From positions 101,874 through 165,873 of the forward strand of contig CAYXUU010000003.1 in the NCBI GenBank assembly GCA_964468645.1: a stretch of DNA of 64,000 bases, given 5' to 3'. This document shows positions 39,022 to 62,730 of the stretch, one piece after another; the first letter of the stretch is position 1, and every line of letters begins with the position of its first letter. The notes beneath the pieces are model-generated. The model was not told the DNA's origin and did not search any database. It saw nothing but the letters and a program-made list of their open reading frames with translations. The position numbers and the translations under genes are program-made. The stretch comes from an uncultured Bacteroidales bacterium (GTDB lineage: Bacteria; Bacteroidota; Bacteroidia; Bacteroidales; JAIOZK01).

Positions 39022-40285
39022 ATGAAAAGCAGAATCCTCACTTTCATTGCCCTGATAGCAGCAATCCTTTCTTCATGTAACAAAGAGGAGGATGACGTAT
39101 CAGATATCATAGCACTTCAATATGACATATCATTCATTGATAGTGTTTTTTATAGAACGATCATAGTGATCACCCTATTGATAAAAGCGGGTTGTTCTGA
39201 AATAACGCAACACGGACATTGCTGGAGTATAAGTCCAGGACCAACAATAGGTAATTGTAAAACCAGTCTTGGTAAATTGGTAAATCCTGTCAGTTTTTCA
39301 AGTGAACTTACCGGATTAACCGAAAACACAAGCTATTACATAAGGGCCTATTTTACGATTAACAATGAAACACTATATGCTGAAGAAGTAAGCGCTACAA
39401 CGTTGAAAACCGGTGTTCCACGGGTAAACACATCAGATATTTCCAACATAAGATACAATACAGTTACAACGGGGATCCCACACTGACAAACAATGAAGGA
39501 TTTTCAGAAAACGGGCAGGGTATGGGAAAATTTCCATAACTGCTTACAGAGCTGACAGAAAACACAAACTACTTTGTTAGTGCTTATGCTACCAATATAA
39601 AAGGTACGGCCTATGGAAATCCAGTTTTATTCAAAACACTGGATGATCCCTGCGATGGTGATACAATGCAGTTCTATGAGGGCGAAACATATAAAATCGT
39701 CCATGTTGGCACACAATGTTGGATGGCAGAAAATCTGAATGTTGGTCAACGAATTGATGGCGATTGCGAAATGGAAGATAACGCTGTGACCGAGAAATAC
39801 TGTTATAATGATGATGAGAACAATTGCGAGGAATACGGAGGGTTATATTCATGGGACGAATTAATGCAATATACCAGCCTGGAAAATGCTCAGGGAATAT
39901 GCCCTGAGGGTTGGCATATTCCTGATGATGAGGTATGGAAAATCCTGGAAGGCAGGTTGACAGTCAATACGGAGTGGGAAGCAGCGAGTGGGATAAAGTT
40001 GGGCCCAAGGGTTCAGATGCCGGTGATAACATAAAATCGGTATCTGGCTGGAGTTCAGGCGGAGCCGGATATGACATGTATGACTTTACTGCTCTTCCGG
40101 CAGGTTACCGGGGTTCAAATGGTTCTTTCAATGATATAGGTGATTACACCTGCTTCTGGTCTTCGACTGAATATAATTCAGACAATGCTTGGAGGCGCTA
40201 CCTTTTCTATCTCTACAGTGTGGTTTTCCGAAACGAAGTCAATAAAGAATCAGGAAGGTCAGTACGTTGCCTGAAAGACAATTGA
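39022..40285 (+). pseudogene. FISUMP-domain lipoprotein pseudogene (decayed paralog of 51049..52680)
   Basis: It is split into at least 3 ORFs. The N-terminus (lipobox SSC, HGHCWS, LTGLTENTSYYIRAYF) is collinear with 51049..52680 until a stop at 39484-39486. The middle repeats are deleted internally, there is an in-frame TAA near 39535, and a 1-nt frameshift near 39950 lies inside the FISUMP domain (GTQCWMAENL...SVRCLKDN). Confidence 0.8.
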
Positions 40286-40555
40286 CAATCCTGATATTTT
40301 GCATATCCGGTTTCTTTGAGGATCAATATTCAAAAAATGGACTTATAAACTTAAATGCTATCCTATTTTAAGTGATAACAGGATTACCTATTTTAAACCC
40401 AGATTATTGACCGAGGATGAAATGGTGACCCTGTATATGATCTTAGTCAATCAATGTGAAACAAATATCGAAGAACTGGTAAAGATTGCAAAGGATGAGT
40501 TTGGGTATTATTTTGAGATGGAAAATTAATTCGATAAATTTCCATATAGAATATT

Positions 40556-40670
40556 GAACGCGGATGACGCAGATCTTCGAACGCGGATGACTCAGGTCTT
40601 CGAACGCGGATAATTTCGAATAGACAATAATATTAATCCGCGTTGCCTGCATCCGCGTCATCCGCGTTCC
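40556..40670. repeat. ACGCGGAT-word inverted-repeat element (copy 2, 115 bp)
   Basis: Left arm GAACGCGGATGACGCAGATCTTCGAACGCGGATGACTCAGGTCTTCGAACGCGGAT, right arm ATCCGCGTTGCCTGCATCCGCGTCATCCGCGTTCC. Confidence 0.8.
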
Positions 40671-40685
40671 AATCTTCATATCGTA

Positions 40686-40723
40686 CTGATTCATAAATCC
40701 GCACATATAAAACTTGATTTCCG
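40686..40723 (+). promoter_or_regulatory. conserved 38-bp upstream block, cassette A copy
   Basis: CTGATTCATAAATCCGCACATATAAAACTTGATTTCCG matches 53084-53121 at 36/38 positions. It lies 82 bp upstream of the first gene of the cassette. Confidence 0.45.
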
Positions 40724-40804
40724 ACTTTTTTCGGTCATACATTTACTTCAAATTTTGATACGATCAAACAAACATACTTCGAATCAAACCTAAAAACAGT
40801 CATC

Positions 40805-41431
40805 ATGAATAATGAAAAACAACAGGGCGAAACATTTGCCAGGGGAAAGGAAATGGGGCAAAAAGCTTATGCAGAAGCCAAAGAATCAACTACCCATGCC
40901 ATCAGGGCATTAAAGACACTGGTCAGCGATCCGATTGGTGGTCAGAAAACCGCTTTGGACAATCTGGGCAGCGCAAATGCATTACGGGCCGGAATAGTAT
41001 TGATTATCATCTTTGCTATATCATGTTATCTGTTTGGAACAAGCTTTATAATAAGAGGTAACGCTGGCGTTTATTTTAAACTTGTATTATTTAGCGTGAT
41101 ACCATCTGCATGTATATTTTGCTGGTATTACCTTATCAATATTATTTTCGGTAAAGAGAAAAAGTGTATACCAACACACATATTCACAACAGGAATAACG
41201 GTTATACCGCTGGCCATATTTTTCTATTGTCTGACAATATTTGGGGCAGATGCTATAGAATTGCTAATTGCCATCGCCACTTTCTGCATCTGTACAATGA
41301 TATTATTAATCAATAGTTCCCTACAGGATATTTATAAGCAAACGACCCGGGGTTCAGTGTTGTTAACCCCCGCGATTGTGTTTTTAACGTACTTCTTGTC
41401 GAAGACTTTCCTGGGTTTACTTATCGGATAA
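40805..41431 (+). CDS. multi-pass membrane protein, unknown function
   Basis: 208-aa ORF with a ~55-aa soluble N-terminus followed by about five hydrophobic helices. Confidence 0.7.
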   Translation: MNNEKQQGETFARGKEMGQKAYAEAKESTTHAIRALKTLVSDPIGGQKTALDNLGSANALRAGIVLIIIFAISCYLFGTSFIIRGNAGVYFKLVLFSVIPSACIFCWYYLINIIFGKEKKCIPTHIFTTGITVIPLAIFFYCLTIFGADAIELLIAIATFCICTMILLINSSLQDIYKQTTRGSVLLTPAIVFLTYFLSKTFLGLLIG

Positions 41432-41474
41432 TCAATTTTATTTAATCATATATTAACCATTAAAATCAAACACC

Positions 41475-42116
41475 ATGAAAAGAACAATCAATTTTTTAAG
41501 TTTAATGCTCAGTGGCCTTATGGTCATTTATTTTTTATCAGGTTGTGGTGGCGGCGGTTCTGCCAGTACCAATATCTCATTGGGTAAGTTGCCGGGTATT
41601 GCAAAAAAATACAGCGACAAAATTGACAAAAAGAAAAAAGATCTTGATGAATGTACCGATATGGAAAAAGCCTTCAAGCTGGATAAGGAGATCAAATCGT
41701 TGAAAAAAGAATCTGATGAAGCAATATCAGAATATCTTTTGAATAATCCGATTGGAGATATTCCATTTGAACAAAAAGCCGAATATCCGTTTACCATAGA
41801 AAGAGTTTTTGTTAACACCGAATATGAAAGCTCCAGTCATTATTTACAATTAAAAGTGAAGATCAAGGTAAATGAAGACATTTTGAACAAATATGGAGGA
41901 TTTGAAAAAACCATATTTGCCTATGCAAATCCAGTTGACAGCGAAGGCACGTCCCTGTCAAAGAAATCCGATGTTTTTAGTTCTGGTTTCGGAAGCCAGG
42001 AATTCAAAAAAGATATGGATTTTGAATTAATGGGCGGCATCCAGCATTTGCAAAACCTTGAAAACTTCGACAAACTGATCTTTGTTTCCCGTGAAGAGTA
42101 TGACAATCCCCAATAA
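41475..42116 (+). CDS. lipoprotein, unknown family (paralog of 53191..53829)
   Basis: 213-aa ORF with lipobox LSGC. It shares GKLPG, EC(T/A)DMEKAFKLD, (I/V)PFEQKA(E/D)Y and a C-terminal EEYDNPQ with the cassette B paralog. Confidence 0.75.
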   Translation: MKRTINFLSLMLSGLMVIYFLSGCGGGGSASTNISLGKLPGIAKKYSDKIDKKKKDLDECTDMEKAFKLDKEIKSLKKESDEAISEYLLNNPIGDIPFEQKAEYPFTIERVFVNTEYESSSHYLQLKVKIKVNEDILNKYGGFEKTIFAYANPVDSEGTSLSKKSDVFSSGFGSQEFKKDMDFELMGGIQHLQNLENFDKLIFVSREEYDNPQ

Positions 42117-42283: not shown

Positions 42284-42697
42284 ATGAAAGAAAAAAATAC
42301 CATTTTTAGTTTTGTAATTGCAGGCTTATTCTTATTTACAATTTCCTGTGATGGACCATCACCATCGTCATCAATTACACCTGCTGAAGTCAATCAGGAA
42401 ATCTTAGAAGAGACTGATAAAGGAAACTTCGATGTTGTTATGGATCTCTTTTCAACCGGAGGTAAAGGATTTACAAATGAAGAGAAAGAACAATTAATTG
42501 AGGTTTTGCAACTCGCACAGGAGGAAGTGCAGAAAAAAGGAGGTTATAAATCATTTGAAATTCTTGAAGAGGGGATTAGCCCATCAGGTGATGAAGCAAC
42601 AGTGAAACTGAAAGTAATTCATGGAAATGGTAAGGAAGAGTTCACAACAAATAAATTTGTCCTTGAAGATGGCCGGTGGAAACTAAAAATGAAATAG
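42284..42697 (+). CDS. small lipoprotein, DUF4878/NTF2-like (tentative)
   Basis: 137-aa ORF with lipobox TISC. The C-terminal GDEATVKLKV...FVLEDGRWKLKM pattern is typical of that fold family. Confidence 0.6.
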   Translation: MKEKNTIFSFVIAGLFLFTISCDGPSPSSSITPAEVNQEILEETDKGNFDVVMDLFSTGGKGFTNEEKEQLIEVLQLAQEEVQKKGGYKSFEILEEGISPSGDEATVKLKVIHGNGKEEFTTNKFVLEDGRWKLKMK

Positions 42698-42727
42698 GCT
42701 GAAAGAATTACATAAATCCCTGAAACC

Positions 42728-43783
42728 ATGAAAATAACAATTACAGCATTCTTTATTGCATTTCTCTTTCTTTCAATAAACAATCTATCAAACGCCCAGA
42801 TAGAAGAGGATTATCATACGGCAGTAATAAGTGTCAGCATACCGGTTATTGTAGACCATTATGAAGTCAGCACGCGAAATGGTGAGATCATCAGTGATAA
42901 ACACATTCCCGATCAACAGGGTGGAATCCGTTTGGCGTACAGGGCAAATGATTTGAAGGCTAATGGCAATTATTTTTCAGGAATATATCTGATGTTTTAC
43001 GGGACCCGGCATCAAATAGAAACCTATTATGGCAAAATATCAGATGATAAACAGACCATGGAATTTATTGAATTGACGAAAGATGACATTGTTTATTCAT
43101 CGGCTGACAGGGATAATGCGTATCTGCAGTCAAAAGTAACAGCTTCGGCAAGATTTGAAAACCTCCCGGTGCTTTACGGACATTATAAATACAAATATGA
43201 TGTAAGTAAAATTACATCTGTCGGGTACCAGTTTATTAATGAAAGAAGGTATATGAGCGGTGGCCAGTTTAAACGGGACAGCATGATCAGTATAAACCAG
43301 GAAAAAATAAACCAGCATTCACAGCTTGCCGATATCCAATTTCAAAAAGGGCAGGCAGATGCTTCAAAACAGAATCCCATCAACATCGTAGTAGGTGCAC
43401 ATAAGTCATGTACTGAAACCGGTAAAAAACTTGAAGCCTCTATCATCAACTATCTGACAAAATTCAAGGCACCACTTTATGCGGATATGTATAAAGGGAT
43501 CATGAACAGCGAAATAACTGACAATGCCGGGATTACTGAATCCGAGCTGGTCAACCCTGAAACAGGTAAAGTTGCTGATATTAATAAGGATAATCCTGTC
43601 ATAGAGATCATCGTTGATGAAACACATGTTGGGGAAGATAAGAACCTTCCACTGGAGCTTCATTCATTGAAAGTATTGATAAAGTATAATAATGATCAGA
43701 TAGAAATAAATCCTGATGATATTAGCAATTTGGATGATATGCCGCACCAGGTACTGGTTAATCTCATTGAAATTATGAACTAA
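42728..43783 (+). CDS. secreted protein, unknown family (paralog of next gene)
   Basis: 351-aa ORF with a signal peptide ending NAQ. It shares (V/I)(S/N)V(S/K)IP(V/I)IVD and YYGKIS(D/S)DKQ(T/K)(M/I)EFIELT(K/S)DDI with 43838..44809. Confidence 0.7.
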   Translation: MKITITAFFIAFLFLSINNLSNAQIEEDYHTAVISVSIPVIVDHYEVSTRNGEIISDKHIPDQQGGIRLAYRANDLKANGNYFSGIYLMFYGTRHQIETYYGKISDDKQTMEFIELTKDDIVYSSADRDNAYLQSKVTASARFENLPVLYGHYKYKYDVSKITSVGYQFINERRYMSGGQFKRDSMISINQEKINQHSQLADIQFQKGQADASKQNPINIVVGAHKSCTETGKKLEASIINYLTKFKAPLYADMYKGIMNSEITDNAGITESELVNPETGKVADINKDNPVIEIIVDETHVGEDKNLPLELHSLKVLIKYNNDQIEINPDDISNLDDMPHQVLVNLIEIMN

Positions 43784-43837
43784 CATTACATCATTCATAT
43801 TCAGATTAACACACTATACAAAACACAATCTACAGCA

Positions 43838-44809
43838 ATGAGAATACAGACCATGCCTGTCTTAGTTATTATCTTTCATTTGTCGGCCAGTTTCATGTCC
43901 TCTGCACAAATCGATGCGGATCATCATTGTGCTACCATTAATGTGAAAATACCCATTATTGTGGACCAGAAAGAAGAACGTGAGCGCAGTGGAACAACTC
44001 ATAATCTGACACATACGCCGGAGAAGCAAATAGATGCATGTTATCAGTACAGGAGCCATGATCTGGAATTTGTTGATGGTTTTTTTTCAGGAGGATATAG
44101 AAAAATTGGCAGTCAGCATACCTATGTTCAAACCTATTACGGTAAAATATCATCGGACAAGCAAAAAATTGAATTTATTGAATTAACCAGTGATGATATT
44201 TATTACACAGGACCTTATATTATGTCTGTAACCAATACCTCCACCAAAATTGTAAATCTCCCTTTGAATTCTGATCTGAATTTATTTGAATTTAAAAATG
44301 GTATTAGTAAAATCAGTTATGTTGAGCACAGGAAGTATCATGAAAAAAGACTTGCATCGACGGTAGATAAAATCATAAAAGAATTCTTTGTTGAAATTAA
44401 CATGCATAAACTGACAAGTTTTCCCCTGGTGGCTCAGATACAGTTTTGTAAAGGAGAGGCTAAAAAGCCCGAGAGAGGCCCTTTACTTATTTCCATAGGC
44501 GCAAATGAACCCTTTTCGAAAAATGAAGGAAACCTTATTTCATCATTTGTTAGTGAGTTTAACAAATTCAAAAACTCTATGTATTCAAAAGCCAGTAATA
44601 GTGCCTCAGCTGACTATTCTATTTCTATTGAGGAGTATCCTATTGCTCCGAACCTTAACCAGCCCAGCGAAAAATCCTCTATAAAAGCATATATTAAACA
44701 TAAAGGCAAAACAACCGTGATCGACTGGCAGGATTTCAAACTACCTGTTAATTTCTCACACCAGGTATTCATTAAACTTATTGAGGTAATAAACAAATCA
44801 GTACAATGA
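43838..44809 (+). CDS. secreted protein, unknown family (paralog of previous gene)
   Basis: 323-aa ORF with a signal peptide ending SAQ. Its stop overlaps the next start (ATGA). Confidence 0.7.
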   Translation: MRIQTMPVLVIIFHLSASFMSSAQIDADHHCATINVKIPIIVDQKEERERSGTTHNLTHTPEKQIDACYQYRSHDLEFVDGFFSGGYRKIGSQHTYVQTYYGKISSDKQKIEFIELTSDDIYYTGPYIMSVTNTSTKIVNLPLNSDLNLFEFKNGISKISYVEHRKYHEKRLASTVDKIIKEFFVEINMHKLTSFPLVAQIQFCKGEAKKPERGPLLISIGANEPFSKNEGNLISSFVSEFNKFKNSMYSKASNSASADYSISIEEYPIAPNLNQPSEKSSIKAYIKHKGKTTVIDWQDFKLPVNFSHQVFIKLIEVINKSVQ

Positions 44810-47800
44810 AATCTATCATTACCGGCCTAATCCTTCTTGTAATTAGTTCATTACTTATAAAGGAAAGCCTTGCCCAGTATCCCGATATGATTGTTATCCA
44901 AAATGTACCAGAAGAGATTGCCTGGGAAATCGTTTACCAGGGTTTTAATGAACAAAATATCAGGTTAAACAACTATAACCGGCAAACCGGGATCGCCCTT
45001 TCTAATTTCTTTACCTATACCAGTATGCTGATCGATAACAGGGCGAAGTACCAGGTAAAGTATATAAATGGCAATATTGAGATCAGCCTGGTCAACAGGC
45101 AATATATGTCGACAGAAGGATGGGCCGATAATTTGTTCCCTTTATCAAAAAAATCAAAAAAGAAATTTCTGGTGCCGCTGGAAAATATAATCATGAAGTT
45201 ATTGGAGGATAATCCAGTTACTAATGTTGAAGAACAGTTACCGGATCAATCTCCAATGAACTGGCAGGATCAGGAACAAGCTGAGAATCAGAATATGTCA
45301 GGGAATGAAGAATCAATTGGCTTTCATCCTATTGCTATCATTTCCTGTTATCCTGTTTCAGGTAGTACATCCATTGATTTCGAATTATCAGGAAAAAACA
45401 GTTTTGATTATGTAACTTTAATCCAGGATCTTAAATTCCGCTGGGACCTGGATAATGATGGCAACTGGGATGATGTATGGAGTGCCAACACTGATATTAA
45501 ACACCGCTTCTCTTCCAACGGCATACATACAGTTAGAATGGAAGTGATGGATACTGATGAAAACATACATGAAACAACACATCAGATACTGGTAGAAGAT
45601 TTCACCCCCTGTCCTGATCTTCCTACAGTCACTTACCTTGAACAAACATACAATACGGTTTTAATAGGAGATCAATGCTGGATGAGGGAGAACCTGAATG
45701 CCGGTGATATGATTTTCCAGATGATGGATATGAAAAACAATGGCAAACTGGAGAAGTATTGTTATGACAACTATCCTGAATTTTGTAAAAAGTATGGTGG
45801 TTTATACCAATGGGGTGAGCTCATGGAGTATAAACCGGGTGACAGTACCGGAATATGCCCGGAAGGGTGGCATATTCCTTCGGTTGATGAATTTGACACA
45901 TTGTTCAGTTTCCTGGGTGGAATAAACATTGCAGGGGAAAGAATGAAAGAAAAAGGATCACTCTTTTGGCCAGCCCCCGAGACAATTATTACCAATCATA
46001 GCGGATACGCTGCCTTACCCGGTGGCAAGTTAAACAGTGATTACAGGTTTTACGGCCTTGGAACCAGAGCATACCTGGCTACTACAAAAGCTATTTTATC
46101 AGAAGATGGATACATACACAGCGTCATTAATCCAAATGATGGCCAATGGAATGACACAAAAATAAAGCAGGATACCTCGTTTAATATGTTTTTATTCAAG
46201 GATAGCATGGCGGTTGAATATGAAAAAATGCCAGTTTCGGAGGGAGTTTCGGTTCGATGTATTAAGAATGGAGAAAATATACCCGAAAAACCGGTTGCGA
46301 AGTTTCATTATTACCATCCGGTTCCGTATCCTGATCACATGAGGAAACCGTATAATATATACAGACTTAACCCTTTCCCGAGCTACGACATGCAGGATCC
46401 GGATTCCGAACTTAAAGCAAAATGGACAATATGGTATTGGAATAGGGAGCGGAGTTTGCTATTCTCTGAAGAGTTCAATCCTTTGAAAATAAAAGAAGAA
46501 ACATTGGAACAAGATCACACTTATCTTGTCAGGTTAATTATCAAAGATACTGATGGGAATACAGATACAACTTTCAATTTTCTTGAGGTTGAAAAAAACA
46601 CACCTCCTCATGCAATACTTACCACCCCTTTTAGGGGTTGTGTTGATTCAACCCAATGGTTGCCATTTAAAGCCATATGGAGTTGGGACAGGGAATATCA
46701 TTTTGAGCACCTTACCTATAGCTGGAATTATGATTTTATTGATGGTGAAGTGGGAAATACTTCTGATAATCAGTCTGATCATATTATCTGCTATGGTAAA
46801 GAAGTAGATTCAGATCACAATTATTATTATCAACCAGGCTCCATCAGGCATCACGGCCAGTATTGCTTATCACCAGATAATCCCGATCAGGATTTCAAAT
46901 ATGACGTTCGTTATTTCCTTGAAAAACATTCCCCGACTTACCTGCGCAAACACCAGATCATGTATCTTGATCCATTTGTTTTCGGGGATGGGAGAGGTAT
47001 AGAATACATTCCTGAGGACACGCTGGTAGTTGACAGGTCAGGCATCACCATAGAAAGGGATCTTGTACGGCAACCATATATGTGGTCAACCAGGCACAGA
47101 TACTTTGAATCTGGTAACTACAGAGTAAGGCTTATCGTAACTGACCCGGAAGGTTTATCAGATACGGCCTATGCCGAAGTTTGTATAGACTCTGAGCAAG
47201 AAGGACAGAAGGACAATGCACCGAATCCGTATTTTGAGGTGTATCCGGGATCGGGAACACTGTGCGACACGTTTACTTTTGATGCATCATGCAGTTACGA
47301 TACGGAGGATCCGTTGGAACGCCTGGAGTTCTGCTGGTTTTTAGACTGGAGCAGACATAAAAAATACCCTCACAAAGATTGGAGTAAAGATAATATGATT
47401 GTTAAATATCAATACGGTAATTTTAACCCCCTGGAAGGCACCGGTTCATATAGCATCAGGCTGGGGGTCAGGGATACCAAAGGGAAAACTAAATATTACA
47501 CAAGAGAATTTCTTGAGGTGGAATATGAAGAATGTAACAGCCCACCGGTGGCTGCATTTACCATTAATCCATCAATAGCAACACCCAACAAAGCTGTCAT
47601 TTTGAATGCCTCTGAGAGTTATGACAATGAGGATGACATTAGTTTACTTCATTTTCGATGGGACTTCTACGGTGATGGCAAATATGATACAGAATGGAGC
47701 AATTTACAACAAACGCAACACGCCTATAAGCACACCGGTAAATATGGTGTGAAACTGCAGGTAAAAGATTCAAAGGGTGACACTTCACATGTTATACATG

Positions 47801-50822: not shown

Positions 50823-50827
50823 TAATA

Positions 50828-50860: not shown

Positions 50861-50896
50861 AACCTCGAATAAAAAACAATACTAATACAATTTACA

Positions 50897-53083: not shown

Positions 53084-53121
53084 CTGATTCATAAATCCGT
53101 ATATATAAAACTTGATTTCCG
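53084..53121 (+). promoter_or_regulatory. conserved 38-bp upstream block, cassette B copy
   Basis: CTGATTCATAAATCCGTATATATAAAACTTGATTTCCG lies 70 bp upstream of the ATG at 53191. Confidence 0.45.
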
Positions 53122-53190
53122 CTATTTCCAATCATATATTTATCACGAATTGACAGATGTTGGTAAAAAAAACCCTAAAAATCAAACATC

Positions 53191-53829
53191 ATGAAAAAAA
53201 CAATCAACCTTTTATGTTTACTTCCGGGGAGTTTAATATTTATCATTTTTATATCAGGTTGCAGTAGCAATGGCTCAGGCAGTACCAATGAAGTTCTCGG
53301 AAAATTGCCAGGTTTGGCAGAAAATTACAAGAAGGAAGTCGCTAACCTTGAACTGAAACTTGCAGAATGTGCCGACATGGAAAAAGCTTTTAAACTGGAT
53401 GCGGAAAAAGAAAATCTCAAGGACAAAGCAAACCAGGCTATTGATGAATACCTTACTGAAAATCCGATCATGGATGTACCATTTGAACAAAAAGCAGATT
53501 ACCTGTTTACTTTCAAAAGGGTATGGGTAGAAAGCTCGGGTTACAGCAGGATCAATTTTAATGCACTGGTTAATATTAATGAAGACATATTGAACAATTT
53601 TGGAAACCCTCCGGGATTTGCACGCAACTTCTTCGCCTATTTCATTGCGATAGATAAAGAAGGAAATCCACTTACCCCTAAGGCAGGTGTGATGATGAAC
53701 CTTGGTAAAAGCCCGTTCAAGGCCGGAATGGAAACAGAAGTCTATGGTTCCCTGGATGGGCCGGCCGACCTGCAAAATTTTCACCAACTTGTTTTTATCA
53801 ATAAAGAGGAATATGACAATCCGCAATAA
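53191..53829 (+). CDS. lipoprotein, unknown family (paralog of 41475..42116)
   Basis: 212-aa ORF with lipobox ISGC and the same conserved blocks and EEYDNPQ C-terminus as the cassette A paralog. Confidence 0.75.
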   Translation: MKKTINLLCLLPGSLIFIIFISGCSSNGSGSTNEVLGKLPGLAENYKKEVANLELKLAECADMEKAFKLDAEKENLKDKANQAIDEYLTENPIMDVPFEQKADYLFTFKRVWVESSGYSRINFNALVNINEDILNNFGNPPGFARNFFAYFIAIDKEGNPLTPKAGVMMNLGKSPFKAGMETEVYGSLDGPADLQNFHQLVFINKEEYDNPQ

Positions 53830-53873: not shown

Positions 53874-54968
53874 ATGGAAAATAAAGAAACAATAAAATCG
53901 GTAACTTTTATTATCGCAGGGGCTTTGCTCCAGATATTCAATGGCGTTGGTGGCGGCTGGGCCGCGCCTGTTGTGTCAATCTTCGGGCTTATCCTGTTTT
54001 TCATCGGATTAAAAAAACTGAAAGATGGATTGGATCCTGCAGGTCAACGTGCCGTAAGTATGCTGATCATCGCTGCGATTGTCGGTTTCGTTGGACTGAT
54101 CATCGACCTTATTCCCCTTGTTGGCTGGCTGGCCATTATCATATTAATGTTGGCTTTCATTATTGAACTGGTTGGTTTTCTCAGGCTGAAAGCATCGGAA
54201 ACAATCGGGGATAAAGGCAAAAGCGGAGCTGGATTACTTGTCATCTCCATGGTACTTGTGGTCATCGCTGCTTTATTCTGGTTTATCCCTGTCGTTGGTG
54301 GTATTATTTCATCCATATTATCCCTTGCTGCACTTTTTCTGGTATTCTATGGATGGCAGCGGATTCAATCGGGGATTATTGGTGATAAAGTACCTGTAAT
54401 AACTTCCATTACGCTAATACTCACAGGTACCTTGCTTTTGCTCTGTAATACTGCAACCAGTGGTTGGGCGCCGGCTATCGCCGCTATCTTTGGATTATAC
54501 CTGGTTTTTAAAGGTTACAAACAATTACATGACCATGTGGATGCTATCGGGCAGAGTGCCGTTAAGCTGCTGGTAATCTCCATCATCATAGGGATAGCAG
54601 CCTCGGCCATGGACTTTGTTGCCTCATTAATCAGTATCGGATCGGGTGATGTTACCGGTTTGATAACATCGGATCCGGGTGTGTTCGATTATATTATCAG
54701 TATAGCCTTTGTTACGGTTTTCGTGGTGCAGTTTATTGGCTTTCTGAAACTGAAAGGGTCAACTTCGATTGGAGAGGCGGGAAAAACAGGTGTTGTCTTT
54801 TTGCTGGTTTCCATGATCGTTGCAGTTGTTGCAAGCATCATTGAAATGGTTCCCTTTAGCGGTGTCATCACACCCGTTTTTGCCATTATCGGCCTGATCC
54901 TGATCTTCTTTGGATGGCTTAAAGTGCAGGATGGGCTTATTAAAGAAAGTTCGGCATCTGATAAATAA
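53874..54968 (+). CDS. polytopic membrane protein with internal duplication
   Basis: 364-aa ORF whose two ~170-aa halves share G(G)WA(A)P..(S/A)IFGL.L.F.G.K.L.D..D..GQ.AV.(M/L)L(I/V)I and F(L/I)(R/K)LK(A/G)S.(T/S)IG(D/E).GK(S/T)G. Confidence 0.75.
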   Translation: MENKETIKSVTFIIAGALLQIFNGVGGGWAAPVVSIFGLILFFIGLKKLKDGLDPAGQRAVSMLIIAAIVGFVGLIIDLIPLVGWLAIIILMLAFIIELVGFLRLKASETIGDKGKSGAGLLVISMVLVVIAALFWFIPVVGGIISSILSLAALFLVFYGWQRIQSGIIGDKVPVITSITLILTGTLLLLCNTATSGWAPAIAAIFGLYLVFKGYKQLHDHVDAIGQSAVKLLVISIIIGIAASAMDFVASLISIGSGDVTGLITSDPGVFDYIISIAFVTVFVVQFIGFLKLKGSTSIGEAGKTGVVFLLVSMIVAVVASIIEMVPFSGVITPVFAIIGLILIFFGWLKVQDGLIKESSASDK

Positions 54969-54983: not shown

Positions 54984-57900
54984 ATGAAAAAACAAATTCA
55001 TGTCTGTTTAAGTTTATCTGTATTTGTAATTTACACTGCTTTCACATCCCATGCACAGATAACTTCCTATCCTGAAGGCGGAAGATGGGATAGCAACACC
55101 ACCTGGATCGGAGGCATTGTCCCTGGTGCTTCAGACAATGTTGTGATCGATGGCAATGTTACACTCTGGAATAATGAAGAGTGCCTTGATATCACCATTA
55201 ATTCCGGTGATACACTGGATAATTACGGTTCAGGTGATGCATTCTGGATTCATGGTAATATAGTTAACAACGGGGCTATTTTGTATGGCCAGAGTTTATA
55301 TTCAAAAGGGGATATCACCAATAATGGGGTCTGGGATGTTTATTTTACCAAGCTTGACGGCGACGGGCCCCAAGAAATATCCCTGCAGTCAGGTAAGGTT
55401 TTCGAAAGCTGGTTCATTAACTATAATAATACAGATACTATAATTGCCATGAGCGACCTGCATTTTAATGGTTATTTTGATGTTCATAACCATGTGCTGG
55501 TTCTTAATAACTATGACATTGAGTTTTCCGGATCGGATGCATGGTTTGGCTACGGGACAGTTCTTTCACCTGGTCAGATATTGGGAACAGTTAGTTTTTA
55601 CTTATCTACAACATTTGAAGGGAACCTTACCGTTACGGATACCATGCAAGGAAGGTATGGCAGTAATAACACTGTTGTCGTTAATGGAAGCCTTATCAAC
55701 AATGGTGTGATCCGGGACTATGGTAAATTATATGTCCGTGTTACCGGTGATATCACCAATAACGGGATATGGAATAATTACCAGACCACATTTGATGGTA
55801 CAGGGCCCCAACAGATTACCCTGCAGGCAGGTAAACAATTTGAAAGTGATTTTTATAACTCAAACAATGACGATACGGTAACAGCCAGTTCTAACCTTCA
55901 TTTTACCGGATTTTTCGATCTTGTGAATAACACTTTTGATCTGAATGGTTATAACATCCGGTTTACAGGATCAGATACTTATTTTGGCAAAGGTACGATT
56001 ATTTCTCCCGGGGAATTCCTTGGCACTGTGAATATAAACCTTGAAACACATATCGAAGGCAACCTGGTTGTGACCGATACCATGCAAAACAGGAATTACA
56101 GCGCATCTCACAGATTATATGTGAATGGTAATCTTACCAATAACGGAGTCATTCAGGAAAATCCGACAGGTTCTTTATTTGTGTACATTACAGGAGATCT
56201 TGACAATCATGGGTCTTGGGACATTCAACGGACTGAAATGAACGGAACCAACCCGCAAATAATCTCCCAGGATGCAGGGAAATCATTTGACGGATTTTTT
56301 AAATTGGACAACGGTACAGATACGGTTAAAGCTACGAGTGATCTGTGTTTTTCAGAAGAATTAAGATTGAATTCTGTCCTGAATATGAATCATTATAATA
56401 TAACATTTTCCGGTACGGATTGTGTATTTAGTGGTGGTAATGCATTGCTTAATCCGAATGAAATTCATGGTGCATTTAATATTTATGGGACTACCTATAT
56501 TGTGGGTAACCCTGTAGTTATGGATACTTTGCGTAATGATAACTGGCCTGCATATTTGTATATAGATGGTGATATAACAAACAATGGCATTATTCAAAAT
56601 GGTGACTCTTACAATTTGATCCTCTATATTGAAGGGGATGTCACTAATAACGGGAAATGGGAAAACTACCAGACATACCTGGATGGCACCGGGCCGCAAA
56701 ATATCAGCCTGCAGGCAGGAAAATCCTTCGATTCATATTTTCATATCCAGAATACAACCGATACGGTCAAAGCCCTCACCAACCTGGTTTTTACCGATAT
56801 CTTTAACCTTAACAATAACATCCTGAACCTAAACCATCACAATATCAGATTTACAGACCCCGATACCTGGTTAGGCCGGGGAACGGTCATATCTCCGGAT
56901 GAGTTCCAGGGAACGGTGAATTTATCCGGTGGTGACTTCTATATTATAGGAAACTTAACGATTACAGATACATTGCAAAAATCTTCCGCTATTGCCTCGG
57001 ATGCCGACGTTCATCTGAGCGGAAGTTTGGTAAACAATGGTATTATCCGGGACGGCACAACATACGATGTAATCCTTTATATAGAAGGAGATATGGCCAA
57101 CAACGGAAGCTGGAATAATGAATTAACCTGGTTTAATGGAGCAGAAGACCAGCATATTGCGCTTACCAGCGGGAAGCTAAATACGGGGGAAGTAAGGTTT
57201 GAGGCCAACAATGGCAGCTCACCCTATCAATGGTATTACAACAGTGCAATACTCGATTCCCCTTATTTTTCAGGAGAGAATTCCGATGAACTGAGCTGGG
57301 AAGGGCCCCTTACAGACAACTGGTATGGAACCTATTATTGTCAGACCACCGCCAGGGATTCCAGGAACATCATGGTCAGTGGCGGTGCGTTTTCCTTTTA
57401 TTTCAATGGCACGGATGCCTACGTGGATTGTGGCCATGATGCCAGTTTGTATTTAACGACAAACATATCGCTTGAAGCATGGATCAATCCGACCGGCTGG
57501 GGTGAAGTTGCAGATATAGGATATGGCAGGATCCTTGACAAACAGCGGTTTAAGCTTTTTCTGAATGATGATGCGGGAACATACAACAGCCAGAGCCTGG
57601 TGATTAGCATCCATAGCGGGGGAAGTTCGTATCAATTGAATACTCCTGCAAGTTCAATCAGTCTGGATTACTGGCAACATGTTGCCGCTACTTACAACGG
57701 CAGTGGTGATGTTAAGGTGTATATCAATGGAATTGAACAGGTGCTGACAGGCACCCCGCCTCCGGGTAACATCGATGATCACAGTCTGAATGACCTGTTG
57801 ATCGGTGAAAACGCCTCCCAGACGAGGGCTTTTGATGGGGATATTGATGAAGTACGTTACTGGAGCATTGTGCTTGACAGCACATCGATCAGGGAAAATA

Positions 57901-60086
57901 TGTACAGGGAACTATCGGGAAGTGACAGTGGGCTGGTCAGTTACTGGAAATTCAATGAAGATACAGGCAACATCGCCTACGACTTTGTTGGAAACAACGA
58001 TGGTACACTTTACAATATTTCCGGTGATGACAGAATCATATCTACAACCCCTGTTCCTTATTATACCGTTGGTAACGGTAACTGGGAGGGCGACAGTGTC
58101 TGGGCCACAGGCCAGAATGCACCTGAACATGCATGGACCCGTGTTAACATCAGCGATTCGGTTGAAATCAATTCAAACTTTGAATTAATTGAATTAACAT
58201 TGGATCAACTTTCCCGTTTAGTAATTAATTCAGGATACCAGTTAACCGTAACCGGTGGCGGAAACGGAAATGGAAACGATACAACAAATCCCAACAATCC
58301 TCCCAATCCACCGGGTTCTCCTGTCCCGGCTGATCATGCAACAAAACAGTCAACACAGCTTGGACTGAAATGGTCATGCTCCGACCCCGATGGGGATCCC
58401 CTTACTTATGATGTATATCTGGATACGGGCAATCCTCCAACCAGTCTGGTTTCCGATGACCAGGCCGATACATCCTATGCAGCCTCATTGGCAAATGGCA
58501 CAACATATTACTGGAAGATTGTGGCATTTGATGACCAGGATAGCAGCACCGCAGGGCCTGTCTGGGATTTCACAACCAACCAGTTGCCGGATGCACCAAA
58601 CTCACCGGTACCGGGAGATGGTGAAACAGGGCAATCTGCTTCACTAAGCTTACAATGGGCCTGTTCCGATCCTGAGGGTGATAATCTAACATACGATGTA
58701 TATCTTGACACCAATGACCCCCCGGTATCTCTTGTATCCAATAACCAGGCAGACACCTTTTATATCGCATCCTTATCAAACGGCACAACTTATTACTGGA
58801 AGATTATTGCATTTGACACCCATGGAGACAGCACAGTTGGGCCGGGATGGGATTTTGAAACCAACCTGGCGCCTGCTGCTCCAAATTCACCGGTGCCGGG
58901 AGATGATGCAACCGGGCAATCCACTTCGTTGATTTTACAATGGGCATGCTCCGATCCTGAGGGGGATCCATTAACCTATGATGTTTACCTTGACAACAGC
59001 AATCCTCCCACGACCCTGGTTGCTGATGACCAGGCCGACACATCTTATGCCGCATCCTGTTCATCCGGTTTAACATACTACTGGAAAGTTGTAGCCTCTG
59101 ATGACCAGGGTAACAGTACGCCTGGTCCTGTATGGGATTTTACAACCAATGATGTACCAGATGCCCCGAACACACCTGATCCTGCCAATGGAGCTACAGG
59201 CCAGTCAATATCAACAACTTTACACTGGGCCTGTTCCGATCCGGATGGAGATGCCCTGACCTATACGGTTTATTTCGGAATGAGCAGTCCTCCGCCACTG
59301 GTTGCATCGGGTGTATCCGATACATTGTATGATCCGGGGACACTGGAATATGATACCACCTGTTACTGGAGAATTGTAGCCATTGATATCCACAGCGACA
59401 GTACAACAGGTCCTATATGGTCGTTTGAAACTGCAGAGGATACTTCCATTTCATGCCCAGACAGTATCTGGCATCAAACGCAATATTACGAACTGGTATT
59501 GATAGGCAACCAGTGCTGGTTCGCTGAAAACGTAAGCTACGGGAAACTGATCAACCAGAATACCGATCAAACTGATAATGGTAAAGTAGAAATGTACTGC
59601 TATAGCAATGATACAGCTTACTGTCTGATCTATGGCGGATTGTACAGGTGGGGTGAAATGATGCAGTATTCAACCGACACAACCTCCAATGGGATTTGCC
59701 CATCAGGATGGCATATTCCAACAGATTATGAATGGAAGATCCTGGAAGGAACGGTTGACAGTCTGTATGATACAGGAGCTGATTCGATTTGGAACGCAAC
59801 TGGCTGGAGAGGATATAATGTTGGTTACAACCTGAAATCACAGAGTGGCTGGAAGGATAATGGCAATGGCTCAGATGCTTTTGGATTTACCGCACTGCCG
59901 GGCGGTTATCAATCTGGTTGCTGTTTTTTCTATCTTACAGCGGTAGGTCATTTCTGGTCATCAACCGAATATGATATTGATGCAGCCTGGTTCCGGAAGT
60001 TTAATCATGGCATAATGAATGACTTCCGCAATCCGAATCCAAAGGGTAAGGGTTATTCAGTTCGATGCATCAAGGATCAGGAGTAG
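54984..60086 (+). CDS. giant secreted protein: ~148-aa repeats x4.5, LamG-like domain, FN3-like repeats x4, C-terminal FISUMP domain
   Basis: 1700-aa ORF with a signal peptide (TSHAQ). The repeat unit is ITNNG(I/V)W..Y.T.(L/F)DG(T/D)GPQ.I(S/T)LQ(A/S)GK.FES. The LamG motif is FDGDIDEVRYWS. Four ~95-aa repeats read W(S/A)CSDP(D/E)GD.LTYDVYLD...TYYWK(I/V)(I/V)A.D. The FISUMP motifs are GNQCWFAENV, YCYSND, YGGLYRW, CPSGWHIPT, GFTALPGGY and SVRCIKDQ. Confidence 0.85.
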   Translation: MKKQIHVCLSLSVFVIYTAFTSHAQITSYPEGGRWDSNTTWIGGIVPGASDNVVIDGNVTLWNNEECLDITINSGDTLDNYGSGDAFWIHGNIVNNGAILYGQSLYSKGDITNNGVWDVYFTKLDGDGPQEISLQSGKVFESWFINYNNTDTIIAMSDLHFNGYFDVHNHVLVLNNYDIEFSGSDAWFGYGTVLSPGQILGTVSFYLSTTFEGNLTVTDTMQGRYGSNNTVVVNGSLINNGVIRDYGKLYVRVTGDITNNGIWNNYQTTFDGTGPQQITLQAGKQFESDFYNSNNDDTVTASSNLHFTGFFDLVNNTFDLNGYNIRFTGSDTYFGKGTIISPGEFLGTVNINLETHIEGNLVVTDTMQNRNYSASHRLYVNGNLTNNGVIQENPTGSLFVYITGDLDNHGSWDIQRTEMNGTNPQIISQDAGKSFDGFFKLDNGTDTVKATSDLCFSEELRLNSVLNMNHYNITFSGTDCVFSGGNALLNPNEIHGAFNIYGTTYIVGNPVVMDTLRNDNWPAYLYIDGDITNNGIIQNGDSYNLILYIEGDVTNNGKWENYQTYLDGTGPQNISLQAGKSFDSYFHIQNTTDTVKALTNLVFTDIFNLNNNILNLNHHNIRFTDPDTWLGRGTVISPDEFQGTVNLSGGDFYIIGNLTITDTLQKSSAIASDADVHLSGSLVNNGIIRDGTTYDVILYIEGDMANNGSWNNELTWFNGAEDQHIALTSGKLNTGEVRFEANNGSSPYQWYYNSAILDSPYFSGENSDELSWEGPLTDNWYGTYYCQTTARDSRNIMVSGGAFSFYFNGTDAYVDCGHDASLYLTTNISLEAWINPTGWGEVADIGYGRILDKQRFKLFLNDDAGTYNSQSLVISIHSGGSSYQLNTPASSISLDYWQHVAATYNGSGDVKVYINGIEQVLTGTPPPGNIDDHSLNDLLIGENASQTRAFDGDIDEVRYWSIVLDSTSIRENMYRELSGSDSGLVSYWKFNEDTGNIAYDFVGNNDGTLYNISGDDRIISTTPVPYYTVGNGNWEGDSVWATGQNAPEHAWTRVNISDSVEINSNFELIELTLDQLSRLVINSGYQLTVTGGGNGNGNDTTNPNNPPNPPGSPVPADHATKQSTQLGLKWSCSDPDGDPLTYDVYLDTGNPPTSLVSDDQADTSYAASLANGTTYYWKIVAFDDQDSSTAGPVWDFTTNQLPDAPNSPVPGDGETGQSASLSLQWACSDPEGDNLTYDVYLDTNDPPVSLVSNNQADTFYIASLSNGTTYYWKIIAFDTHGDSTVGPGWDFETNLAPAAPNSPVPGDDATGQSTSLILQWACSDPEGDPLTYDVYLDNSNPPTTLVADDQADTSYAASCSSGLTYYWKVVASDDQGNSTPGPVWDFTTNDVPDAPNTPDPANGATGQSISTTLHWACSDPDGDALTYTVYFGMSSPPPLVASGVSDTLYDPGTLEYDTTCYWRIVAIDIHSDSTTGPIWSFETAEDTSISCPDSIWHQTQYYELVLIGNQCWFAENVSYGKLINQNTDQTDNGKVEMYCYSNDTAYCLIYGGLYRWGEMMQYSTDTTSNGICPSGWHIPTDYEWKILEGTVDSLYDTGADSIWNATGWRGYNVGYNLKSQSGWKDNGNGSDAFGFTALPGGYQSGCCFFYLTAVGHFWSSTEYDIDAAWFRKFNHGIMNDFRNPNPKGKGYSVRCIKDQE

Positions 60087-60115
60087 GCAAAACTGCGACG
60101 TTGTATTAAAAAATT

Positions 60116-60312
60116 GGAACGCAGATAACACGGATCTCCGCACGCGGATTGTCGCGGATGGTGATTAAAAATCATGTAATGTTGAGCAAAGCCGAAGCAT
60201 CTTCATATTAACCATCAATCCAATCTGAAATTAGCATTCGTTATCCGATATTCGATATTTAAAATAAATTCGTGGAAATCCGCGTTGCTTGCATCCGCGT
60301 TATCCGTGTTCC
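60116..60312. repeat. ACGCGGAT-word inverted-repeat element (copy 4, 197 bp, degenerate)
   Basis: Left arm GGAACGCAGATAACACGGATCTCCGCACGCGGATTGTCGCGGAT, right arm ATCCGCGTTGCTTGCATCCGCGTTATCCGTGTTCC. Confidence 0.75.
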
Positions 60313-60375
60313 ATAAAACCAGGTCCTCATTCATTGTAACCATATTTTTACTATATTAGCACAAATCCTATTTTG

Positions 60376-61413
60376 ATGAGATCAATCGTATTTTTTATAT
60401 GTTCTCTATATAGTCTCCTCTCATTCAGCCAGGTAGATCCCCTTATCAACAACGACTGGCAGAACTATCAATGGCCCTACAATGCTTACTTCCCCCTTAA
60501 TGAGCATGGAATCAACGGCCATGTCGGCAATGCTTGTGGCCCAACTGCCATGGCCCGGGTTATTCAGTATCACCAATTTCCGTTAAACGGAACAGGCACC
60601 ATCGATTATGTTGATGACAGCAGCATACGCTGGATGTGCACCTTCGACACTCTGAACCTGATTTATGAAGACATGCCCTATGAGCTCGGCGAAGATGATC
60701 CCCAGGCAGTCTATCATGAAACTGCAAAACTGATGTTTGGATGTGGAGTGCTTGGTACTAAGTTCAGGGTCGGTAATTTTGAAGGAATTTACAGAATGAA
60801 AAATGCCCTGGTAGATCATATGCATTATGACACCACTGCCCGTATCATCAATCGCTGGGAAAACACAAGGGAAGAATGGATCGATTTTTTCAAAACCGAG
60901 CTGGATAACGGAAGGCCTGTTATCATAGCAGGCCGCTCCCCCAACAGCCCGCCACCCTGGGAGCCCGGTGGCTGGGATGGACACTATTTTGTTTGTGATG
61001 GCTATAATGCTAAAGGTGAATTCTATATGAATTATTCCAGTTCAGGTATAATGGGATATTTTGATATTGATTACATGCACTACTACCAGTCGTACCACAG
61101 GGCATTGATTGGCCTGAAGCCAGCCAAACTTGGAATTGATGATCTTTCAGATAGTGACAATTTTGTTGTAAAGCTGATCCAATATCCTGGTATATGTGGA
61201 TGTAAGATACTGGTTAATGCACCTGAAAATTCAAACTGTACTATACAGCTCCTTGACATCAATGGAAGATACCTGGAAAACTTGTTAAGCAGCAAACTTC
61301 AACCAGGACGTAATGAAATACCTGTTGCCAATAAGTCACTAAGTAAAGGCGTTTATTTGCTTCATGTTTTGATCGGTTCACAAAACTATTTCAGAAAACT
61401 CATTGTTTCGTAA
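60376..61413 (+). CDS. C10 family (streptopain-like) cysteine peptidase with T9SS C-terminal domain
   Basis: It has a signal peptide. W.NYQWPYNAYFP and GNACGPTAMARVIQYHQFP provide the catalytic Cys context, and GHYFVCDGYNAKGEFYMNY the catalytic His context. The C-terminal Por-type tail is LIQYPG...VYLLHVLIG...KLIVS. The start was set to ATG 60376; the ORF track used TTG at 60373. Confidence 0.8.
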   Translation: MRSIVFFICSLYSLLSFSQVDPLINNDWQNYQWPYNAYFPLNEHGINGHVGNACGPTAMARVIQYHQFPLNGTGTIDYVDDSSIRWMCTFDTLNLIYEDMPYELGEDDPQAVYHETAKLMFGCGVLGTKFRVGNFEGIYRMKNALVDHMHYDTTARIINRWENTREEWIDFFKTELDNGRPVIIAGRSPNSPPPWEPGGWDGHYFVCDGYNAKGEFYMNYSSSGIMGYFDIDYMHYYQSYHRALIGLKPAKLGIDDLSDSDNFVVKLIQYPGICGCKILVNAPENSNCTIQLLDINGRYLENLLSSKLQPGRNEIPVANKSLSKGVYLLHVLIGSQNYFRKLIVS

Positions 61414-61437
61414 AATGCCTTTTCAGGAGATTGTTCC

Positions 61438-62730
61438 ATGGAAATACAAAGCAGGATAAGAATTTTTATTTCACTTTGTTTGTTTGTAGTTATTTCATTG
61501 TTCCCTAACCGGGATACTTACTGCCAGGAATAGTTTAATTACAATGAGTTTCTTGAATCTATCATTGAAATACCCAACGATTCCCTGGGATCTTTCCTTT
61601 ATCATACAAGTATGAGGATGGCATCATCCGATTCCCTGAATGCCCCAGGTGAGCTGCTGAAACATTGCAGACAGATTGTTGAGGAACTGCGGGATAGTTT
61701 ATTGCTTGCGAAATGCCTTATTTTAACCGGTGAAGTATCAAATGATCTCTTTGAATATCGCAATTCTTTTGAAGCTTATACTCAGGTCCTCAATACATCC
61801 CTGGCTTTAAAAGATACCACCCTCTTGCTTGATGCCCTCGATGGGTTGATTGATTCATCATTAAGTGCAGCCAAAAAATCGGAATACCCGGAAGTATACT
61901 GCCATGCCCTTACTAACTTCGCAATAACCTTGTTTGGAAAGGATAAGGAGCGTGCATTCCAATATATCAGAATAGCAATAGAATCAGCACGGAAACTGAC
62001 ATCCCCATCCAGGGCGCTGGTTTACGCACTCACAAAAGGAAGCATCATTTATATACAGGATGATAGAGGGGATTCTGCAATATTGAATTTATACAAGACC
62101 ACTGATGAGGTTGACAGTATATACAAGTATCAACAGAAATATATGGGGATTTTCAGATAAAAGCATGACAGGGATATGAACCTTCAAATTGCCCGTCTTT
62201 CTGCTTAATACCAGATAGAACAAAAAACAGAGGCCATCGATAACCTGACCATCATCAATAATCAACGGAAAGTCATAATCAGAAATCAACGCAGATTTAT
62301 CATTGTACTGGTTGTCGCCATTCTTATTACAGCTTTTCTTTTCACATTGCTTTATTATCAATTCAGAAAGGTAAAACGTGCCCACAATAAATTATCCCTT
62401 AATGCACTTGAAATAAACAGGGAAATCAATGAATTAAAAAAGAAAAGAAATCAACAACTGCAAGTTGTTCATGATGAATTAAAAAACAATACTTCCTATA
62501 TCTCTGCATTGATTAACCAGGATTACCAGTGCAAATTTAACCAGTTCGTCAATAAATACAGAATTCAAAAAGCATGTGAATTGTTAAGCAGCTGGGAGAT
62601 GGATAAGTACTCCATTGAAGGTATTGCAGAGCTTTCAGATTTTAAATCCAAGTCGGTATTCAACCAGACGTTTAAAGAGGCTACGGGAGTTAATCCATCC
62701 ACCTTCCGGAAAGCCACTGTTACTCAATAA
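61438..62730 (+). pseudogene. decayed paralog of the TPR-TM-AraC regulator 49056..50822
   Basis: It is collinear with the intact copy but carries nonsense codons at 61531 (CAG GAA TAG versus CAG GAA CAT), at 62158 and near 62206. It also has two large deletions in the TPR region and one that removes the first part of the HTH. Confidence 0.85.

Follow-up and report, generated by a model that had tools for sequence, protein, structure and literature searches.

How can two diverged copies of a secreted-protein operon persist side by side when each has lost different genes, and could a single surviving regulator serve both? The question is raised by a locus on contig CAYXUU010000003.1 of an uncultured marine Bacteroidales, of which we analyzed a stretch of 64,000 nucleotides (the window). 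Two tandem, collinear cassettes, A and B, of approximately 12 kb each and with all genes on the + strand, occupy the 24.6 kb that separate an alpha/beta-hydrolase gene (38069-38860) from the tag gene (38.8-63.4 kb of the window; Table 1). Each is headed by a gene for a FISUMP lipoprotein, continues with a promoter box and an operon that includes a lipoprotein of approximately 210 residues (A5, B2), a membrane protein (A4, B3) and a giant FISUMP protein (A9, B4), and ends with a C10 peptidase and a regulator combining tetratricopeptide repeats (TPR), a transmembrane (TM) helix and an AraC-type helix-turn-helix (HTH) domain. Within the cassettes the genes are co-oriented with intergenic gaps of -4 to 286 nt. 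Taking the evidence as a whole, we think it rather probable that these are diverged tandem units of a gene neighborhood that recurs in Bacteroidales, and that the surviving regulator, A11, serves both of them.

Comparison of the two cassettes by sensitive blastn yielded a run of collinear matches offset by 11.7-12.4 kb, bearing out an earlier interpretation of the letters alone (the sequence-only reading), which had proposed two parallel cassettes in the same order on the + strand. Its open reading frames (ORFs) and domain calls also agreed with our Pfam and NCBIfam profile searches. At the protein level, the FISUMP lipoproteins of A and B are 59-66% identical and A5 and B2 46.5%, and the similarity of A9 and B4 is limited to the FISUMP domain. 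A4 and B3 share no detectable similarity in protein comparison, although both have multiple TM segments, and nothing in cassette B corresponds to A6, A7 or A8.

The losses in the two units are complementary: cassette A is without an intact FISUMP lipoprotein and C10 peptidase, cassette B without an intact regulator. Alignment of the A FISUMP pseudogene with its intact homolog B1 follows one frame for residues 1-150 and a second frame from approximately position 39470; about 122 residues, roughly B1 residues 151-272 and corresponding to one of three immunoglobulin-like (Ig-like) repeats, are missing, an in-frame TAA lies near 39536 and the frame changes again near 39950. The Fib_succ_major domain is still recognized in the fragments (39666-40285; 77.6 and 42.8 bits, cut-off 33.9). 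Of the C10 peptidase in cassette A only the last 88 residues survive, within a 91-codon ORF (48755-49030), and the catalytic part is gone. The deletions in the B regulator pseudogene fall in the TPR region and before the HTH domain, with HTH_18 still scoring 50.8 bits (cut-off 33.6) in the fragment 62347-62730. As the source is a metagenome assembly with a word depth of approximately 5-10x, these lesions might be sequencing or assembly artefacts. However, Logan contigs of four runs from two studies (X1, X3, X5, X6) cover every lesion with 0 differences, and the lesions are large deletions and multiple stops rather than single homopolymer errors. Because these contigs reproduce the lesions exactly, assembly error is excluded for practical purposes as the cause of the pseudogenes, an artefactual origin being highly improbable, and the reciprocal decay noticed in the sequence-only reading is real. 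The sole ambiguity concerns the regulator 3' tracts, where short-read assemblers merge both copies and the depth is doubled. Runs X7-X11, which hold a low share of the region, contain the same organism at low coverage and no diverged relative. The further claim that only one intact copy of the FISUMP lipoprotein, the C10 peptidase and the regulator survives holds for the 64-kb window.

Upstream of the operon, both cassettes contain a stretch previously described as a conserved 38-bp block, which we identify as a promoter box. Its parts are a palindrome, ACAT, a -33 TTG and, after 20-21 nt, a TAnnTTT[A/G] -7 element; the conserved portion of approximately 30 bp, the TGATTYATAAATCA palindrome plus ACAT, is centered some 55 nt ahead of the inferred start of transcription. 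Boxes A and B differ by three mismatches over a core of approximately 45 nt and are 86% identical over 65 nt, more alike than the flanking coding DNA (68-73%). We take the -33/-7 layout to fit the primary-sigma promoter consensus of Bacteroidota, and a palindrome centered near -55 lies where activators typically do. A scan for terminators and sigma-70 promoters performed no better than on shuffled sequences; Bacteroidota promoters lie outside the models of that scan.

Wherever the available sequence of a related locus extends far enough, the box is also found ahead of the homologous lipoprotein gene, with the consensus tGT.c.GATTtATAAATCag.ACAT..Aa.A.TTGa; in one locus (L148) it precedes a giant C10 protein, and the lipoprotein gene comes next after the giant. 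A profile built from 21 copies of the box gave exactly one + strand match per locus in 29 loci of other metagenomes and metagenome-assembled genomes, some of them near-duplicates (22-43 bits), and two matches in the window (40682-40729 and 53079-53127). In control loci totaling 1.17 Mb, including 80 Bacteroidales loci, no match exceeded 9 bits.

The A5/B2 lipoproteins belong to a family without a Pfam or NCBIfam model; A4, A6, A7, A8 and B3, like A5, have no family in NCBIfam. A word-indexed search recovered 35 members, six GTDB species representatives carry a copy, a single metagenome scan contained 26 loci, and an exhaustive profile search of 1.84 billion representatives returned 306 clusters at 50% identity (E <= 1e-3). 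The predicted fold is a helical hairpin followed by an Ig-like sandwich (predicted local distance difference test, pLDDT, 87).

We examined approximately 38 related loci, in which partner genes were found by phmmer with the window proteins. Their flanking housekeeping genes differ (RuvA/SprA, rplM/rpsI, CN_hydrolase, M48 peptidase), and the neighborhood is therefore kept together for its own sake. The lipoprotein gene is always first or early in the operon. It is directly followed by a standalone gene of approximately 275 codons, similar to the N-terminal module of A9 (A9N), in 10 loci; A7-like genes occur in 7 other loci, C10 peptidases in 6 (as 346-aa enzymes or as domains of 1200-1700-aa proteins), and A6-like genes and FISUMP proteins in 2 each. 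The variable proteins mostly carry a C-terminal domain (CTD) of the type IX secretion system (T9SS), together with PKD, CarboxypepD_reg, beta-helix, LamG, esterase or C10 domains. Next to the lipoprotein operon, regulators sharing 52-59% identity with A11 are present in L014, L138/L149, L141, L146 and L147, and more distant TPR-AraC genes in L010, L151, L159 and L161, placed either at the operon end or immediately upstream of the box. The order in L146 and L147 is C10-regulator-box-lipoprotein, the same as across the A/B junction of the window.

The recurrent core thus comprises the box, the lipoprotein of about 210 residues, the module of about 275 residues, an A7-like protein, C10 or other secreted proteins and a TPR-TM-AraC regulator. 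This recurrence in other genomes was what the sequence-only reading had looked for, and of the core it proposed, the lipoprotein, the C10 peptidase and the regulator stand. Its membrane proteins drop out, as A4 and B3 are unrelated and neither has a homolog in any of the approximately 38 loci, and so does the giant FISUMP protein, given that FISUMP occurs in only 2 of them. The suggestion that the core is not a described system agrees with the literature searched, where we found no description of it and no paper describing a TPR-TM-AraC regulator of the A11 kind. The module itself appears to be undescribed, although as an operon for secreted proteins with a linked regulator it varies a well-known theme.

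In A11, a TPR region of approximately 370 residues is followed by one clear TM helix (near 406-436), a coiled stretch and the AraC HTH domain (HTH_18, 55.8 bits, cut-off 33.6). Its gene ends 2.3 kb upstream of box B. Both box-driven operons, with ORFs as long as 1297 and 1700 aa, and both boxes have stayed intact, and only one regulator has; A11 moreover precedes box B in an order that recurs elsewhere. For these reasons A11 probably controls both operons. It would act as a one-component transmembrane activator, with the TPR sensor predicted to be periplasmic and the AraC domain cytoplasmic. An envelope or periplasmic ligand would be sensed through the TPR domain, for which the co-inherited lipoprotein may be a partner or co-sensor, and A11 would then bind the box and activate the operon. 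As its own gene lies in the cassette A operon that it would control, positive feedback would result. The secreted load of the operons looks like adhesins and degradative enzymes.

Several points weigh against this proposal. AraC-family domains usually bind asymmetric sites, and for that reason another factor, one that acts as a dimer, may be what recognizes the box palindrome. The lipoprotein model had no match in the PDB at E <= 0.001, and its weak matches were generic Ig-like sandwiches (ApaG, NPC2, IrmA); because the fold matches nothing informative there, the role of the lipoprotein is a guess. No T9SS CTD (Por_Secre_tail/TIGR04183) was recognized in A9 or B4, some related loci have no regulator in the available sequence (mostly at contig ends), and our search found no RNA runs holding the region. 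The rest of the genome may also encode further regulators, C10 peptidases and FISUMP lipoproteins.

The history of the two copies bears on how far they can be regarded as duplicates. Of the ancestral segmental duplication put forward in the sequence-only reading, the paralogy and collinearity of the units are upheld, and a simple recent event is not: A5 and B2 each have higher identity to copies from other organisms (up to 65% and 57%, respectively) than to one another, were sisters in 0/200 bootstraps and represent two different, old subtypes with shared indels, which makes the duplication ancient or mosaic. The A subtype is accompanied by A9N, A7, A6 and C10 genes in L136, L141 and L143, and the B subtype by LamG/esterase/C10 giants and the regulator in L009, L012 and L014. 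By contrast, the regulator pseudogene and the CTD remnant have their nearest relatives in the partner copies of this genome, and the FISUMP lipoprotein that heads both cassettes is not linked to the operon in other loci. Over the first 125 residues or so, A11 and the pseudogene are approximately 60% identical (read from the alignment), similar to A11 and its orthologs (54-59%), and from about residue 340 through the TM helix they are nearly identical. The DNA identity of 85-95% there, against approximately 70% further 5', points to a recent gene conversion in the 3' half of the regulator (50071-50846 versus 62072-62754). Read most simply, the locus goes back to an old tandem duplication, or contains two old subtypes in tandem, and the regulator underwent gene conversion later on.

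The same observations could alternatively mean that no duplication in place occurred, and that two distinct subtypes were juxtaposed, or the interior of one unit was replaced, by recombination or horizontal transfer anchored on the box and regulator or on the repetitive extragenic palindrome (REP)-like elements described below, gene conversion later homogenizing the ends. The grouping of A5 and B2 with copies of other organisms and the subtype-specific synteny (A resembling L136/L141, and B resembling L009/L012/L014) favor such an origin, as do the GC content of the B4 DNA (0.43-0.47, versus approximately 0.38 in the surroundings) and the presence of REP-like elements at all borders. On the other hand, the shared FISUMP lipoprotein gene at the start of both units, the same-genome affinities of the CTD remnant and the regulator pseudogene, and the nearly equal length of the units weigh against it, and an old local duplication would explain all of these observations equally well. 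We regard juxtaposition or replacement as possible and the less favored of the two histories.

Whichever way the units arose, their decay might be neutral, with both cassettes eroding, a complementary pattern that is coincidental, and a B operon that is constitutive, silent or otherwise controlled. With only three genes involved, complementarity could easily arise by chance; other debris is present as well (the 5' remnant, the miniature inverted-repeat transposable element (MITE)-like element and the REP-like elements), and the failure to find RNA runs fits this view too. Against it, every operon gene downstream of both boxes is intact down to the two giant ORFs, the box is the best-conserved non-coding stretch between A and B, and the intact regulator is placed relative to the next box as in L141, L146 and L147, so that we consider purely neutral erosion unlikely. 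A use of the broken copies as silent donor cassettes, from which gene conversion would generate surface-protein variation, seems very improbable: the conversion-like tract in the otherwise ~70% identical regulator pair is what such a mechanism might leave behind, but it falls in the regulator rather than in a domain exposed at the surface, the identity between the FISUMP pseudogene and B1 is an even 68-73% throughout, and four metagenome runs contain no variant junctions or mosaics. Two diverged tandem units served by A11 remain the explanation we prefer, and complementation may have preserved both of them.

Table 1. Features of the two cassettes and their borders, followed by the stretches aligned between A and B (positions in the window).
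Feature	Position	Strand	Description
REP-like E1	38844-38978		left border, after alpha/beta-hydrolase gene; fold -48.5 kcal/mol, z -4.9
FISUMP lipoprotein pseudogene (A)	39022-40285	+	one Ig-like repeat deleted, two frameshifts, one in-frame stop
REP-like E2	40550-40676		palindrome; fold z -6.0
Promoter box A	40682-40749	+	palindrome CTGATTCATAAATCCG 40686-40701, ACAT, -33 TTG 40714-40716, -7 TACATTTA 40738-40745; 39.3 bits
A4	40805-41431	+	208 aa, ~5 TM segments; without homolog in related loci
A5	41475-42116	+	213-aa lipoprotein, type i; helical hairpin plus Ig-like beta-sandwich
A6	42284-42697	+	137-aa lipoprotein, SnoaL_3/DUF4878-like (NTF2-like); homologs in L136, L152
A7 and A8	42728-44809	+	351 and 323 aa, secreted paralogs, 31% identical
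A9	44806-48699	+	1297 aa; A9N module at the N-terminus, followed by FISUMP and PKD
C10 peptidase remnant	48761-49030	+	T9SS CTD only; 42% to B5 residues 258-345
A11	49056-50822	+	intact 588-aa regulator; N-terminal hydrophobic segment, TPR, TM near 406-436, HTH_18
REP-like E3, half element	50818-50886		A/B junction; one arm, no stable hairpin
43-codon ORF	50897-51028	+	signal-peptide-like start; possible 5' remnant of B4-like gene
B1	51049-52680	+	intact 543-aa FISUMP lipoprotein; three Ig-like repeats and FISUMP domain
MITE-like element	52708-52923		216 bp, between B1 and box B; perfect 13-nt terminal inverted repeats CTAACCTGCATTA / TAATGCAGGTTAG
Promoter box B	53079-53142	+	palindrome 53084-53099, -33 TTG 53112-53114, -7 TATATTTA 53135-53142; 32.5 bits
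B2	53191-53829	+	212-aa lipoprotein, type ii
B3	53874-54968	+	364 aa with 7 or more TM segments; no relation to A4, without homolog in related loci
B4	54984-60086	+	1700 aa; LamG, fn3/Ig repeats, C-terminal FISUMP
REP-like E4	60110-60315		between B4 and C10 gene
B5	60373-61413	+	intact 346-aa C10 cysteine peptidase with T9SS type-A CTD
Regulator pseudogene (B)	61438-62727	+	one frame, 3 in-frame stops, ~6 in-frame deletions
REP-like E5	62729-62894		palindrome; RNA fold
PD-(D/E)XK_3 (GxxExxY-type) gene	62902-63297	-	131 aa; between E5 and E6, outside both cassettes
REP-like E6	63343-63441		right border, then tag; RNA fold
tag (3-methyladenine glycosylase I)	from 63443		right of cassette B
Aligned: FISUMP lipoprotein	A 39136-40276; B 51160-52671		68-73% DNA identity
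Aligned: non-coding block	A 40681-40745; B 53079-53142		86% DNA identity
Aligned: lipoprotein	A 41455-41794; B 53171-53510		68% DNA identity
Aligned: regulator 5' part	A 49141-49866; B 61523-62065		70-72% DNA identity
Aligned: regulator 3' part	A 50071-50846; B 62072-62754		85-89% DNA identity

The FISUMP assignments are based on Fib_succ_major (PF09603) matches of 118.3 bits in B1, 106.4 in B4 and 84.1 in A9, and on TIGR02145 matches of 109.6 and 138.2 bits (cut-off 41.65). The N-terminal module of A9 had no match in a word-indexed homolog search, and against PDB sequences gave only a marginal PKD-like match to ColH. The C10 peptidase B5 (Peptidase_C10, 102.8 bits, cut-off 26) contains the motifs NAC55GPTAMA and GH204YFVCDGY, in which we take Cys55 and His204, assigned by eye in comparison with SpeB, to be the catalytic dyad. 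Its CTD is recognized marginally by the Pfam model Por_Secre_tail (28.0 bits, cut-off 27) and also by TIGR04183 (27.6, cut-off 23). Pfam identified no inhibitor family in A5, A6 or B2. For the 43-codon ORF at the start of cassette B, previously called a 5' remnant, derivation from a B4-like gene is weakly indicated (8/26 identities to the B4 N-terminus) and plausible. B4 itself contains three 285-nt tandem repeats (58369-59238) and, in its N-terminal part, a repeated GDITNNG-like motif. A structural model of A7 (42728-43783) places residues 29-207 in about ten long antiparallel strands, at low confidence (pLDDT 53, from only 4 sequences); its weak, non-significant structural matches are the outer-membrane beta-barrels Ail, OmpA, OmpX and Pla, so that an outer-membrane barrel can be taken as a lead only.

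The repeat earlier noted as ACGCGGAT, like the other repeat element of the sequence-only reading, is a REP-like element, palindromic, approximately 100-200 nt long and built of xxGCGGAT words. All 12 matches of its 19-mer in the window fall within 38849-63437, at gene and cassette borders, and the copies fold as long hairpins (z -3 to -6). That these elements helped the rearrangements at this locus is speculation. The exact 19-mer GAACGCGGATGACGCGGAT is found in at least 120 loci of species-representative genomes from many phyla and taxa (Bacteroidota, Chloroflexota, Planctomycetota, Acidobacteriota, Ignavibacteriota, Calditrichota, Methanoperedens), often as +/- pairs that are spaced by 69-200 nt and show the same arrangement of words. 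No Rfam family matched the whole window or the repeat region, and the repeat sequence was not found in any paper in our literature search. Among the matches listed, a PD-(D/E)XK_3 gene accompanies the motif in 3/120 external loci, each time within 0-24 nt. We rejected this gene as a driver of the elements, as only these 3 of the 120 listed loci have it and the other neighbors are diverse. The MITE-like element is distinct from the REP-like element; raised assembly depth and short contigs at its position suggest that it is multi-copy in the genome.

Elsewhere, the window is rich in secreted proteins, several of which have T9SS sorting domains. Four tandem paralogous giants (8332-24956; 1391, 1336, 1359 and 1410 aa), each with an S8 subtilase and a dockerin-like domain, form another locally amplified set of secreted proteases, two of them with a weak, sub-threshold match to the T9SS CTD. 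Just downstream (25870-28311), a gene encodes a protein of 813 aa in which Ig-like domains of the HYDIN/ASH type are combined with a T9SS CTD. The sequence was found in runs from marine/seawater metagenomes. A 732-aa protein with the domain set of EF-G (35684-37882, - strand) has its best match among GTDB species representatives at only 78% identity; judged by this protein, the organism would have no close species representative in the GTDB scan.

If our explanation is correct, the promoter box, the Pfam-less lipoprotein family and the regulator with TPR sensor and AraC output constitute a new regulon module of uncultured Bacteroidales. The control of T9SS-secreted proteins in Bacteroidota is poorly known outside a few model species, and with the box, metagenomes could be searched by a simple sequence for secreted proteins under common regulation. 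The complementary decay would be a tidy natural case of two operon copies turning mutually dependent, taken alone an ordinary evolutionary outcome. It resembles the duplication-degeneration-complementation model, reportedly proposed by Force et al. in 1999, in that the units lose different components and both are needed for the full gene set; it differs in that a whole operon with its regulator is concerned rather than the regulatory modules of one gene, and in that the duplicates are old and mosaic.

Two known types of locus do not apply. Among the cassette proteins, Pfam found no SusC/SusD-type match as expected of a polysaccharide utilization locus. The FISUMP domain was described in the sequence-only reading as being of unknown function, which is too strong, as Fib_succ_major is listed among the target-protein domain types of diversity-generating retroelements, whose variable regions typically lie in ligand-binding C-type-lectin folds (PMC5758913, PMC4159848, PMC11661182). 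In the window such a retroelement can be rejected: the ORFs scanned with Pfam, which do not include every small ORF, contain no reverse transcriptase, and there is no template/variable repeat pair, the FISUMP segments being only 66-78% identical. Closer parallels are the C10 loci of Bacteroides (bfp/bfi of B. fragilis, btp of B. thetaiotaomicron), where SpeB-like genes exist in several paralogous copies, share transcripts with genes for small envelope proteins and are readily gained and lost (PMC2873492, PMC3462683). Their partners are staphostatin-like inhibitors, whereas those found here are lipoproteins of helical-hairpin/Ig-like and NTF2-like type, and unlike the Bacteroides loci, the present one has a peptidase with a T9SS CTD and its own TPR-AraC regulator and promoter box.

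For the regulator, the nearest parallel in architecture is FimS of the Porphyromonas gingivalis FimS/FimR system, in which two TM helices enclose eight periplasmic TPR motifs and the ligand may be a polypeptide (PMC11053733). The FimS model is matched weakly, over positions 150-387 of 618, by A11 residues 202-445 (36 bits, cut-off 600). Both proteins have a first TM segment, a TPR array that is periplasmic (in A11 by prediction) and a second TM segment, both come from Bacteroidota, and both are associated with genes for cell-surface structures; the module may offer another system for studying the ligands of FimS-type TPR sensors. A11 is nevertheless not a FimS-type sensor histidine kinase, as the match is confined to the sensor part and the histidine-kinase/ATPase domains are absent; with the AraC-type HTH domain fused directly, it is a one-component protein. 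Membrane-bound one-component regulators with a periplasmic partner are known in ToxR/ToxS, TcpP/TcpH and CadC. Like these, A11 is predicted to link a periplasmic sensor to a cytoplasmic DNA-binding domain in one membrane-spanning protein, and by analogy the lipoprotein is a candidate counterpart of the small co-encoded envelope partner. As a tentative extension, which we hold to be less likely than the explanation of the locus itself, the lipoprotein and the TPR-TM-AraC protein could form a new, ToxR/ToxS-like envelope signaling pair that switches on interchangeable operons of secreted or surface proteins, many of them with a T9SS CTD, through the TGATTYATAAATCA box in marine/sediment Bacteroidales, one regulator having here taken over two operons after decay of its paralog. 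The resemblance would be one of principle, since ToxR-type proteins carry an N-terminal, OmpR-like winged-helix domain and A11 a C-terminal AraC domain together with its TPR sensor.

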